The notes below the pieces were generated by a model, which was not told the DNA's origin, searched no databases, and was given only the letters and a program-made list of their open reading frames with translations. 64,000 nucleotides of DNA from the NCBI GenBank assembly GCA_021683455.1, contig GCA_021683455.1_3051.1. One strand, given 5' to 3'. The stretch is from a phage. A program made the position numbers and the translations under genes. Of the stretch, positions 27,761 to 30,984 are shown in pieces; position 1 is the first letter of the stretch, and the number at the start of each line of letters is the position of its first letter.

Positions 27761-29740
27761 ATGACTTTATTATCTCCGGGCATTGAGCTCAAAGAAACTA
27801 CGGTTCAAAGCACCGTGGTTAATAACTCTACTGGTACAGCAGCTTTGGCCGGTAAATTCCAGTGGGGTCCTGCTTTTCAGATTAAACAGGTTACAAATGA
27901 AGTAGATTTAGTTAATACTTTTGGTCAACCAACCGCTGAAACTGCTGACTATTTTATGTCTGCGATGAATTTCTTGCAGTACGGAAATGACTTACGAGTA
28001 GTTCGTGCTGTTGATAGAGATACCGCTAAAAACTCATCGCCAATTGCTGGTAATATTGAATACACAATTTCTACCCCAGGTAGTAACTATGCAGTTGGAG
28101 ATAAAATCACGGTCAAATATGTTTCAGATGATATTGAAACTGAAGGTAAAATTACTGAAGTAGACGCAGATGGAAAAATTAAGAAAATTAATATTCCTAC
28201 TGCAAAAATTATTGCTAAAGCTAAAGAAGTTGGCGAATACCCAGCATTAGGTTCTAACTGGACTGCAGAAATTTCTTCATCTTCTTCCGGTTTAGCTGCA
28301 GTAATAACTCTTGGAAAAATTATTACTGATTCCGGTATTTTATTAGCTGAAATCGAGAGCGCTGAAACTGCTATGACAGCAGTTGATTTTCAGGCAAATC
28401 TTGAAAAATATGGAATTCCAGGAGTAGTAGCTCTCTATCCAGGCGAATTAGGCGATAAAATTGAAATTGAAATCGTATCTAAAGCTGACTATGCGAAAGG
28501 CGCTTCTGCATTACTCCCAATTTATCCAGGTGGTGGTACTCGTGCATCTACTGCTAAAGCGGTGTTTGGATATGGACCACAAACTGATTCACAGTACGCT
28601 ATTATAGTTCGTCGTAATGATGCTATTGTTCAAAGCGTTGTTCTTTCAACTAAGCGTGGCGAAAAAGATATTTACGATAGTAACATCTATATCGATGACT
28701 TTTTCGCAAAAGGCGGCTCAGAATATATTTTTGCAACTGCACAAAATTGGCCAGAAGGCTTCTCTGGAATTTTAACTCTGTCTGGTGGATTATCATCAAA
28801 TGCTGAAGTAACAGCAGGAGATTTGATGGAAGCTTGGGACTTCTTTGCTGACCGTGAATCTGTTGACGTTCAACTGTTTATTGCGGGTTCTTGTGCTGGT
28901 GAATCTTTAGAAACAGCATCTACTGTCCAAAAACATGTTGTTTCAATCGGGGATGCTCGTCAAGATTGCTTAGTATTGTGCTCACCACCACGTGAAACTG
29001 TAGTTGGAATTCCTGTAACTCGCGCTGTTGACAACTTAGTCAACTGGAGAACTGCAACAGGTTCATACACTGATAATAACTTTAATATCAGTTCAACATA
29101 TGCAGCAATTGATGGTAACTACAAATATCAGTATGACAAATATAATGATGTGAATCGTTGGGTTCCATTAGCAGCTGATATTGCTGGTTTATGCGCAAGA
29201 ACTGATAACGTATCTCAGACTTGGATGTCTCCAGCTGGTTATAATCGTGGCCAGATTCTTAACGTTATTAAACTTGCTATTGAAACTCGCCAAGCTCAGC
29301 GCGACCGTTTATACCAAGAAGCTATTAACCCAGTAACTGGTACAGGTGGCGATGGTTACGTATTGTATGGTGATAAAACAGCTACTTCTGTTCCTTCTCC
29401 ATTTGATCGTATTAACGTTCGTCGTCTGTTTAATATGTTGAAAACGAATATCGGACGTAGTTCAAAATATCGTTTGTTCGAATTAAACAATGCGTTTACT
29501 CGTTCATCATTCCGCACAGAAACTGCCCAGTACTTACAGGGAATTAAAGCTCTCGGTGGAATTTATGAATATCGTGTAGTTTGCGATACAACAAATAACA
29601 CTCCGTCAGTAATTGATAGAAATGAGTTTGTTGCAACATTCTACATCCAACCGGCTCGTAGTATAAATTATATCCAACTTAATTTCGTCGCAACTGCTAC
29701 TGGTGCAGATTTCGATGAGTTAACTGGTCTTGCAGGTTAA
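27761..29740 (+). CDS. 18: gp18, contractile tail sheath protein (659 aa)
   Basis: Size identical to T4 gp18; synteny. Confidence 0.95.
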   Translation: MTLLSPGIELKETTVQSTVVNNSTGTAALAGKFQWGPAFQIKQVTNEVDLVNTFGQPTAETADYFMSAMNFLQYGNDLRVVRAVDRDTAKNSSPIAGNIEYTISTPGSNYAVGDKITVKYVSDDIETEGKITEVDADGKIKKINIPTAKIIAKAKEVGEYPALGSNWTAEISSSSSGLAAVITLGKIITDSGILLAEIESAETAMTAVDFQANLEKYGIPGVVALYPGELGDKIEIEIVSKADYAKGASALLPIYPGGGTRASTAKAVFGYGPQTDSQYAIIVRRNDAIVQSVVLSTKRGEKDIYDSNIYIDDFFAKGGSEYIFATAQNWPEGFSGILTLSGGLSSNAEVTAGDLMEAWDFFADRESVDVQLFIAGSCAGESLETASTVQKHVVSIGDARQDCLVLCSPPRETVVGIPVTRAVDNLVNWRTATGSYTDNNFNISSTYAAIDGNYKYQYDKYNDVNRWVPLAADIAGLCARTDNVSQTWMSPAGYNRGQILNVIKLAIETRQAQRDRLYQEAINPVTGTGGDGYVLYGDKTATSVPSPFDRINVRRLFNMLKTNIGRSSKYRLFELNNAFTRSSFRTETAQYLQGIKALGGIYEYRVVCDTTNNTPSVIDRNEFVATFYIQPARSINYIQLNFVATATGADFDELTGLAG

Positions 29741-30385
29741 TTGATTATGGGGCTTCGGCCCCTATTCTCGAGGAAACAAGTGATTATTTCTAAGTTTGTT
29801 ACAATAAAACCAAGAAATCATTCAAAAATGTGGTCGACAATTCTGGGATATAAAGTATCATATCATGATACAGTATCTGTTCCAATAGAATTAATGCCAA
29901 AGAATAGTAATAAAATAGTTGACGCTAAATGTGATTTGTGTGGTACTAAATTTAGTAGAAGCATTCAACTTTTAAATAGAACACCCACACATGCGTGTAG
30001 AAAATGTAGCATTAAACAAGTTGCTATTAAAAATTCGGAAGTTCAATCTGGAATAAGCAGACCATGGCAAAGAGGTGATAAACATCCTCGATGGACTGGC
30101 AAAAGAAAAGAGTTTGCATTATATGCTAGTAGAGTTCATTCTATAACTAAGTCAGCTAAAATAAGAAAAATCTGGTCAAAATGGCCAAATGCTGATAAAA
30201 TAGGAGTGTGTGGCGTAGAAGGTGCTTACCAACTCGATCATAAAGTATCTATCAAATATGGATTTGATAATTTAATTCCGCCGGAAATTATAGCAAGCGT
30301 AAAAAATTTAGAAATAATCACTTGGGAATCTAACCGAGAAAAGTCAAAAAGAAATAGCGTAGATCTTTGGGATTTACTAGAATGA
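29741..30385 (+). mobile_element. Free-standing HNH homing endonuclease inserted between genes 18 and 19
   Basis: N-terminal Cys-rich motif (CDLCGTKF..CRKC); C-terminal HNH-like motif (QLDHKVSIKYGF..NLEIITWESNREK); track ORF start spans the terminator hairpin, so the real start is probably near 29780 (GTG with GAGG SD) or 29828 (ATG). Confidence 0.7.
29749..29762 (+). terminator. Stable UUCG-tetraloop hairpin after gene 18 (attenuator or RNA stability element)
   Basis: GGGGC-TTCG-GCCCC perfect stem-loop just after the gene 18 stop; weak T-run. Confidence 0.45.
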
Positions 30386-30470
30386 TTCTAAAGGCCTGTT
30401 TCGGCAGGCCATATAAATACACTATATCCTTAATTCTTTAATTCTATATGCCCTAGGTTAAACATAGGGA

Positions 30471-30478
30471 TATAAATA
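30471..30478 (+). promoter_or_regulatory. Late promoter TATAAATA for gene 19
   Basis: TATAAATA 15 nt upstream of the gene 19 ATG. Confidence 0.6.
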
Positions 30479-30492
30479 CTACAGAGGCTAAT

Positions 30493-30984
30493 ATGTTTGT
30501 AGATGATGTAACACGAGCGTTTGAATCTGGTGATTTTGCTCGACCTAACTTATTCCAAGTAGAAATTTCTTATCTTGGACAAAATTTTACGTTCCAATGT
30601 AAAGCCACTGCTTTACCAGCTGGTATTGTAGAAAAAATTCCAGTCGGATTTATGAACCGTAAAATTAACGTGGCAGGCGATCGTACATTCGATGACTGGA
30701 CTGTTACAGTAATGAACGATGAAGCTCATGATGCTCGCCAGAAGTTTGTTGATTGGCAAAGCATTGCCGCAGGACAAGGAAACGAAATTACTGGTGGAAA
30801 ACCTGCAGAGTATAAAAAGAGCGCTATTGTTCGTCAATATGCTCGTGATGCTAAAACAGTAACAAAAGAAATTGAAATTAAAGGTCTGTGGCCTACTAAC
30901 GTGGGTGAACTTCAATTAGATTGGGATTCAAACAATGAAATCCAAACCTTTGAAGTAACTCTTGCTCTCGATTATTGGGAATAA
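30493..30984 (+). CDS. 19: gp19, tail tube protein (163 aa)
   Basis: Size identical to T4 gp19; synteny. Confidence 0.95.
   Translation: MFVDDVTRAFESGDFARPNLFQVEISYLGQNFTFQCKATALPAGIVEKIPVGFMNRKINVAGDRTFDDWTVTVMNDEAHDARQKFVDWQSIAAGQGNEITGGKPAEYKKSAIVRQYARDAKTVTKEIEIKGLWPTNVGELQLDWDSNNEIQTFEVTLALDYWE

Follow-up and report, generated by a model that had tools for sequence, protein, structure and literature searches.

ORF19.1, a putative homing endonuclease gene between the tail sheath and tail tube genes of a T6-like phage

In phage T4 the genes for the tail sheath (gene 18) and the tail tube (gene 19) are adjacent, 116 nucleotides (nt) apart with no open reading frame (ORF) between them. The same interval is 752 nt long in the phage DNA analyzed here, a stretch of 64,000 nt referred to as the window (NCBI GenBank assembly GCA_021683455.1, contig GCA_021683455.1_3051.1). 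It contains an ORF, named ORF19.1. The question raised by this locus is what ORF19.1 encodes and how it came to lie between two tail genes. It was read as a free-standing homing-endonuclease-like gene of the HNH (His-Me finger) superfamily, with a probability of roughly two in three. On this reading ORF19.1 is an uncharacterized member of a well-known kind of element, a class common in these phages. An original prediction made from the window alone had taken genes 18 and 19 to be adjacent in T4 and had proposed that a nuclease gene was inserted between them. The adjacency and the insertion were both borne out by alignment to T4.

The insert, the empty site and the reading frame

The T4 empty site reads TAA-TACGGTGC-ATTCTAAAGGCCTGTTTCGGCAGGCC. 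In the window, 645 nt substitute for the 8 bp TACGGTGC in the alignment. The T4 junction can also be written TAA-TACGGTGC-ATTCTAAAGGCC, and both junctions of the insert were placed by alignment. The insert starts directly after the gene 18 stop codon and a TGATT repeat is present at both junctions. An identical 9-nt gap was found in all 14 empty Tequatrovirus loci examined. Compared across relatives, the 18/19 junction gave a precise insert boundary against a uniform empty site, as expected from the predicted insertion. No ORF remnants were found in empty sites, where the gaps ranged from 23 to 214 nt and were unrelated in sequence.

The open frame on the plus strand from 29741 to 30385 was confirmed. 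As first tracked it began with a TTG abutting the gene 18 stop codon. Its upstream end had been said to cross a UUCG hairpin, with the real start lying downstream, and both statements held. The hairpin was found by RNA folding, and the start was placed at a GTG 39 nt into the frame. This GTG was taken as the true start because homologues begin there and because other carriers have retained GAGG and GTG but have mutations in the in-frame TTG and ATG further upstream. Twenty-six homologues start with MIISK at the GTG residue. A match to phrog_5104 ("unknown function", 4e-82) aligned from the same residue, and GenBank annotations of T6 use the same start. The coordinates of all features are given in Table 1.

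ORF19.1 has a G+C content of 32.5%, compared to 39% in both flanking genes. Ten independently sampled alleles were all intact, with 26 synonymous and 12 non-synonymous variant codons (pN/pS 0.11), and the protein is under purifying selection. ORF19.1 is not a chance ORF, as judged from these ten intact alleles together with the 6,059 cluster representatives matched at E ≤ 1e-3 in the family search described below.

The signals for expression differ among carriers. The UUCG stem-loop is kept in A-type and B-type alleles. It has no U-tract, and neither it nor the native stem-loop upstream of gene 19 was called as a terminator in a terminator scan. The native stem-loop has a fold energy of -14.1 kcal/mol (z = -3.05). 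A sigma-70 scan found no convincing promoter in the 39-nt spacer before ORF19.1. The motif TATAAATA, the T4 late-promoter consensus, occurs in other genera with a hairpin directly upstream of the homologue, in phage VR7 and in loci L036, L039, L041, L044 and L062. In phages QL01 and Roth16 the homologue is preceded by a TATAAT-type promoter and a G+C-rich hairpin. In the window, the most economical reading is that ORF19.1 would be expressed late and probably at a low level, from gene 18 late transcripts that read through the UUCG hairpin. Translation would begin at the GTG behind the GAGG ribosome-binding site. Masking of the ribosome-binding site by the hairpin was considered and rejected, as the fold was no more stable than that of shuffled sequence (z = -0.72) and the GAGG was unpaired.

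A 7-of-8 match to the late-promoter motif, TATAAATT, was seen inside gene 18 at 29662-29669. It is found in carriers of both of the alleles described below and in some empty phages, and T4 has GCATTAAC at that place. It could serve as an alternative late start point for ORF19.1.

Table 1. Coordinates of features at the gene 18/gene 19 locus of the window.
Feature	Position	Strand	Remarks
Gene 18, tail sheath	27761-29740	+	Pfam Gp18 and Phage_sheath domains
Island of mostly synonymous variation	29641-29700	+	41-100 nt upstream of the insertion point, in gene 18
Insert relative to T4, 645 bp	29741-30385	+	Holds its own hairpin, ribosome-binding site and ORF19.1; from alignment to T4
UUCG stem-loop GGGGC-UUCG-GCCCC	29749-29762	+	RNA fold; between the gene 18 stop codon and the ribosome-binding site
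Shine-Dalgarno GAGG	29770-29773	+	6 nt upstream of the GTG; conserved in all carriers examined
ORF19.1 coding sequence	29780-30385	+	201 aa; GTG start, TGA stop
Zinc ribbon CxxC...CxxC (C51, C54, C73, C76)	29930-30007	+	Within the N-terminal domain, residues 1 to ~90
HNH-like core Y150-Q-L-D153-H154 ... N176-L ... W182-x-x-N185-R-x-K188	30227-30343	+	Predicted strand, loop, strand, helix
Native stem-loop	30393-30410	+	Identical in T4, where it lies directly 3' of gene 18; here 3' of the insert
First late-promoter motif TATAAATA upstream of gene 19	30412-30419	+	Native, identical in T4
Second late-promoter motif TATAAATA upstream of gene 19	30471-30478	+	Native, identical in T4
Gene 19, tail tube	30493-30984	+	Pfam Phage_T4_gp19

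The window belongs to a T6-like Tequatrovirus. From 29400 to 30800 it shares 99.9% identity with Shigella phage ESh32 and 98.7% with T6. Genes 17 (terminase), 18, 19 and 20 (portal) are all encoded on the plus strand, and ORF19.1 has the same orientation. Two records named as Pseudomonas phages (OR584013.1 and PV654520.1) were 98.6-98.7% identical to the same region. Their host names may reflect mislabelled hosts or database contamination.

The ORF19.1 protein and its relatives

Two motifs had been claimed for the protein, one Cys-rich at the N-terminus and one HNH-like at the C-terminus, and both were seen in an alignment of 27 homologues. In the N-terminal domain the four cysteines C51, C54, C73 and C76 (201-aa numbering) are invariant or nearly so. 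The region of the zinc ribbon weakly matched kinetoplastid mS66 and the treble-clef zinc finger DUF4379. The domain is presumed to be a DNA-recognition module.

In the C-terminal domain Y150, Q151, D153, H154, S157, G161, F162, N176, L177, W182, N185, R186 and K188 are invariant across the 27 homologues. Two sets of 27 homologues, one close and one diverse, showed no change at D153-H154, N176 and N185. Among 144 relatives at greater distance, conservation was still at least 90% at D153, H154, N176, L177, N185 and K188. When the C-terminal domain was aligned by itself, the only invariant columns were G145, D153, H154, N176 and N185. The resulting pattern, DH-x3-[SP]-x3-G-[GF]...NL...N-x2-K, is the HNH pattern in its H-N-N form. 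The residues would correspond to the catalytic His after an Asp, the bracing Asn and the Asn of the metal-binding helix that characterize HNH nucleases.

Structure prediction gave a pLDDT of 89 for the full length, and a pLDDT of 85 with a pTM of 0.73 for residues 95-201. Both models contained a strand at 150-154, a strand at 177-181 and a helix at 182-188. This predicted strand-strand-helix arrangement is the metal-binding fold of the HNH/His-Me finger superfamily. The C-terminal domain is very probably a His-Me finger nuclease, an assignment based on the motif and the predicted fold and not on a significant profile match.

The nearest known variant of the core is the Cas9-type HNH (HNH_4, PF13395), which shares the H-N-N form. 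Alignment by hhalign to the HNH domain of SpCas9 put YQLDH on YDVDH in the expected register, with YQLDH...N...NRxK along YDVDH...N...NRGK, at a statistically weak probability of at most 10%. The Cas9 residues matched in register are D839-H840, N854 and N863. The statistics were too weak for this alignment to be used as proof of the fold. The surrounding architecture and biology of Cas9-type HNH are completely unlike those of ORF19.1.

Searches with PDB sequence profiles returned zinc fingers, kinetoplastid mS66, ribosomal L31 and leucine-rich-repeat proteins, and these matches were treated as spurious. The leucine-rich-repeat matches arose with the C-terminal domain alone as query and were attributed to the resemblance of IGxIxNLQxxPWxxN to the repeat consensus. 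The stretch at 30300-30343 (residues ~165-188), PPEIIASVKNLEIITWESN, mimics this consensus and is a trap for automated annotation.

The family was searched in 1.84 billion representative proteins. There were 6,059 matches at E ≤ 1e-3, of which 1,644 were at E ≤ 1e-10. Among the best 143 relatives, Pfam showed the C-terminal domain fused to DUF4379, DUF7487, HTH_23/38/7 or NUMOD3. HNH_4 was the sole HNH profile touched, by two of 144 relatives at ~1e-3. The domain combinations suggest interchangeable DNA-binding modules on one nuclease domain, as found in homing endonucleases. One nuclease domain with swappable modules, at sites between conserved genes, is the usual signature of free-standing homing endonucleases.

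Relatives were also seen at other core-gene junctions. Three of them, at L056:1742-2362, L075:3330-3929 and L096:3333-3923, have a helix-turn-helix and zinc N-terminus on the same C-terminal domain. All three lie between Mre11-like (gene 47-like) and Rad50/SMC-like (gene 46-like) genes on environmental T4-like contigs. A relative of 259 aa on a 171-kb T4-like contig (L065:3000-3779) follows a gp25 homologue and an ORF of 607 aa, which was taken as gp6-like though it had no Pfam match. This position adds a third type to the insertion sites of the family.

Distribution, alleles and flanking variation

ORF19.1 is sporadic and not a core gene. The Tequatrovirus-type sample comprised 658 phage records matching the flanks. 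Seventy of these covered at least 80% of a query spanning the insert and were assigned to the T6-type allele. About 48 further records, including RB6, RB10, pSs-1 and HY03, matched only the 3' third of the ORF, with 88-89% DNA identity. They carry a second (RB6-type) allele of 205 aa at the same site. The two alleles together account for about 118 of the 658 records, or ~18% of T4/T6-type phage records. Junctions from IMG/VR that were anchored on gp19 were occupied by the ORF19.1 family in one of 15 loci. In a second sample anchored in the same way, two of 79 junctions were occupied, 76 were empty and one held an unrelated ORF of 238 aa. Presence in such a minority agrees with the original prediction, in which conservation as a core feature of all relatives would have counted against a mobile gene.

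The unrelated ORF lies between gp18 and gp19 homologues on an environmental T4-like contig (L130:1748-2464). It has two H-x-T-L motifs, which suggest a 2H phosphoesterase. As it occupies the same place, the 18/19 junction accepts other cargo.

By tblastn the protein was found in 241 phage records, with hosts including Escherichia, Klebsiella, Acinetobacter, Serratia and Sinorhizobium. The match spanned at least 80% of the protein in 233 of the 241. Most homologues are labelled "hypothetical protein" in GenBank. A few recent records use "HNH endonuclease", "homing endonuclease" or "type II restriction endonuclease", the last of these in Klebsiella phages Roth16 and Roth78 (PQ657790.1 and PQ657822.1). 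Others are labelled "holin", as in phages SYGD1 and ZCEC14 (MW883059.1, sampled here as L204, and OP168898.1). The "holin" annotation is almost certainly wrong.

The position of the full-length form is strongly conserved. A profile-based search of IMG/VR gave 80 loci, and in 50 of them the homologue lay between homologues of gp18 and gp19. This position held even where gp18 was only 35-48% and gp19 only 26-39% identical to the window. Cultured phages with a homologue between genes 18 and 19 are VR7 (annotated as gp19.1), Klebsiella phage Roth16 and Acinetobacter phage Acj61. In Sinorhizobium phage phiM7 the homologue lies directly after the sheath gene and the downstream gene differs. The site next to the sheath gene is thus almost always constant for the full-length form, even in very distant relatives.

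The history of the ORF is discordant with that of its flanks. Over 32 loci the Spearman correlation of ORF identity with gp18 or gp19 identity was 0.55-0.59, compared to 0.75 between the two flanks. In 14 pairs the flanks were at least 90% identical in protein and the ORFs only 33-57%. The flanking proteins of the window and RB6 are 99-100% identical. Their ORFs have an overall identity of about 50%, which drops to 30-38% for residues 1-126 and rises to 87% for residues 127-201. The result is a mosaic of an unrelated recognition half and a shared catalytic third. From the discordance of flanks and ORF, replacement is evident and a very recent long-range jump is not. Recent transfer across genera was looked for in the form of ORFs much closer to one another than their flanks, and no such case was found.

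One or more of the sampled T6-type alleles show six clustered amino-acid changes at residues 168-175 that match the RB6-type allele (window compared to L207). This suggests patchy gene conversion between the two alleles.

Variation is also localized in the adjacent part of gene 18. Among 33 Tequatrovirus loci nucleotide diversity averaged 0.039 in the final 740 nt of gene 18 and rose to 0.18 in the island at 29641-29700, with the peak 51-90 nt ahead of the stop codon. The 100 nt adjoining the island had a diversity of ~0.004, and the maximum on the gene 19 side was 0.064. In the encoded peptide, ARSINYI(Q/T)LNFVA, the Q/T position is the sole changing residue. The island exists as three or four haplotypes among Tequatrovirus sequences that are otherwise 97-100% identical. 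All 20 carriers of either allele had T and C at the synonymous sites -58 and -52, and 13 of the 14 empty loci had C at the first and A or T at the second. The island is a candidate target or co-conversion zone. Simple linkage gives the same pattern, and the island is regarded as a lead and not as a result. The 3' end of gene 18, and not the junction between the genes, may hold the cleavage target.

One empty phage, L201 (LC348380.1), has the gene 18 flank of carriers of the RB6-type allele. It is a candidate for clean gene loss or for a recombinant. A fixed flank difference between carriers and non-carriers had been considered, with two sites fixed in 10 loci, and was abandoned when L201 broke it in the larger sample.

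Interpretation and relation to known systems

Presence or absence with precise boundaries, sporadic occurrence at a constant site and a history discordant with the flanks were all observed, as expected of a homing gene. As a homing endonuclease ORF19.1 would act as follows. The beta-rich N-terminal domain with its four-cysteine zinc ribbon would recognize DNA. In the nuclease domain D153-H154 would provide the general base, N176 would brace the hairpin and N185 would bind the metal. In a mixed infection the enzyme would nick or cut the DNA of a relative lacking the gene, in or close to the 3' end of gene 18. The broken genome would then acquire the gene and nearby markers through T4-type recombination-dependent repair on the carrier template.

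Several results weigh against this reading. No HNH call was made for the ORF19.1 protein by Pfam, NCBIfam, PADLOC or PHROGs, which gave only sub-threshold zinc-finger matches and PHROG 5104. PDB sequence profiles, searched with three alignments, returned zinc-finger and spurious leucine-rich-repeat matches and no HNH, and Foldseek found no match for the full model in the PDB at E < 1. For the HNH fold of the original prediction the outcome is mixed, though favorable on balance, with invariant D-H, N and N residues and no HNH call from the profile searches. The loop of ~22 residues between the two catalytic strands is longer than in a textbook HNH. Within the T6-type lineage the ORFs are 96.4-98.0% identical and the flanks 95.3-97.9%, so that they diverge in step. 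The 32-locus comparison showed no ORF with an identity far above that of its flanks, so direct signs of recent transfer between lineages were lacking. The association of flank variants with carriage is expected from simple linkage, and the empty L201 breaks it. A literature search turned up no cleavage, homing or expression work on ORF19.1.

Some of these points would fit a domesticated HNH nuclease that is kept for the benefit of the phage. Such an enzyme could exclude or degrade co-infecting relatives, degrade host or unmodified DNA, or trigger recombination that amplifies nearby genes. Purifying selection with nearly all copies intact, the position beside the sheath gene kept across very deep divergence, and the equal divergence of ORF and flanks in the T6-type lineage are all in its favor. 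A 2026 paper reported that the T6 homing endonuclease SegB drives amplification of anti-defense genes (PMC13096335), so such enzymes can serve the phage. The gene is nevertheless lacking in ~80% of the Tequatrovirus records and in ~97% of the T4-like junctions that were sampled, and any function serving the phage must therefore be dispensable. Replacement of alleles between near-identical phages is expected of selfish elements competing for one site. The protein also had no defense-related or anti-defense profile match. Domestication was considered unlikely for these reasons. A non-nuclease zinc-ribbon protein binding DNA or RNA, such as a late regulator, or an HNH helper of the terminase of the HK97 gp74/GVE2 type, is the least probable of the readings weighed. 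The lack of any significant HNH profile or Foldseek match would suit it, as would the location among packaging and tail genes, with terminase gene 17 on one side and portal gene 20 on the other. However, D-H, N and N are the most conserved positions in more than 140 diverse relatives, which is hard to explain for a non-enzyme, and the NUMOD3 and helix-turn-helix fusions of relatives point to nucleases acting on DNA. Most T4-like phages package their DNA without ORF19.1. T4 gp17 has its own nuclease for headful packaging, and a packaging helper is therefore not needed. Both forms of this reading are made unlikely by the conservation pattern and the distribution.

It is also improbable, somewhat more so than domestication, that ORF19.1 is a passive cassette shuffled by flanking stem-loop and promoter motifs and that its protein has a function unrelated to mobility. 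Promoter-early stem-loop (PeSL) cassettes of T4-type phages were described by Arbiol et al. 2010 (PMC2839356), and their stem-loops are typically GGGG...CCCC. ORF19.1 has such a stem-loop at its edge. Stem-loops with similar loops bracket the insert (GGGGC-TTCG-GCCCC on the left and GGCCTGT-TTCG-GCAGGCC on the right), together with the TGATT at both junctions. The promoter and stem-loop before the QL01 and Roth16 homologues, the unrelated 238-aa ORF at the same junction in one environmental phage, and the empty L201 with its carrier flank haplotype, which is compatible with clean excision, also fit. PeSL shuffling was, however, described for hyperplastic regions of orphan genes, whereas ORF19.1 lies in a conserved late structural block, has no early or sigma-70-type promoter in the 39-nt spacer of the window copy, and belongs to a conserved nuclease-like family. 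Shuffling could account for gain and loss. It leaves unexplained why a single family, its nuclease-like residues invariant, keeps to this site throughout the T4 superfamily, and why relatives occur at other core-gene junctions. Shuffling and homing are not mutually exclusive and the former may operate alongside the latter.

The homing endonuclease reading is closest to the free-standing homing genes of T-even phages (SegF, SegG and SegB; MobA-E; SegH and Hef). These are likewise small genes between conserved genes, in the orientation of their neighbors, and close relatives differ in whether they carry them or cleanly lack them. Alternative elements at one site are known among them, as segH and hef take the place of mobC and mobE in some phages, and ORF19.1 has alternative alleles at its site. 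Late-type signals upstream of ORF19.1 homologues and localized variation in the adjacent conserved gene are further points in common. The full-length form of ORF19.1 differs from these genes in keeping its sheath-adjacent site far beyond the T-even group. This comparison was drawn in part from a review (PMC2988022) and from Table 5 of PMC2993671.

ORF19.1 does not match the Seg or the Mob type. The Seg proteins are GIY-YIG nucleases and ORF19.1 is not. Mob proteins have an N-terminal HNH_3 domain followed by a C-terminal zinc finger (PMC10448857). ORF19.1 has no HNH_3 match and the reverse order, with the zinc ribbon at residues 51-76 and the nuclease motif at 150-188. Compared to the small HNH nicking enzymes Gme HNH (PDB 4h9d) and phage GVE2 HNH (PDB 5h0o) the sequence identity is only 10-20%. 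ORF19.1 also differs from these in the ~22-residue loop between its core strands and in having its zinc ribbon in a separate N-terminal domain. Gme HNH and GVE2 HNH have a cysteine/histidine zinc site around the core, and the core of ORF19.1 does not. ORF19.1 resembles the HK97 gp74/GVE2 class only in its fold. A partner of the terminase would be expected wherever this terminase and portal occur, but T4 and most T4-like phages with the same two genes lack ORF19.1.

A broader picture of the family is offered tentatively. ORF19.1 may represent a very large HNH clade missed by curated profiles (at least 6,000 clusters at 50% identity), whose full-length form is tied to the 3' end of the sheath gene across the T4 superfamily, in T-even coliphages, Acinetobacter and Sinorhizobium phages and environmental phages. 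Occupancy of a few percent would be kept up by repeated invasion and loss, and retargeting would occur by swapping of the N-terminal module. The two Tequatrovirus alleles would compete for one site, and the island in gene 18 would be a footprint of target escape.

The extra interest of ORF19.1 over other elements of its kind is modest and stems from how large the unrecognized family is and how long it has stayed with the sheath gene. Profile libraries miss the large nuclease-like family defined by the C-terminal domain, and a curated model would improve phage annotation. In T-even genomes the 18/19 junction tolerates insertions. When T-even phages co-infect a cell, free-standing homing endonucleases influence recombination, marker exclusion and gene flow between them. 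ORF19.1 is an uncharacterized candidate of this kind in the model phage T6, in the middle of an essential tail block, with T4 as its natural empty-site partner.

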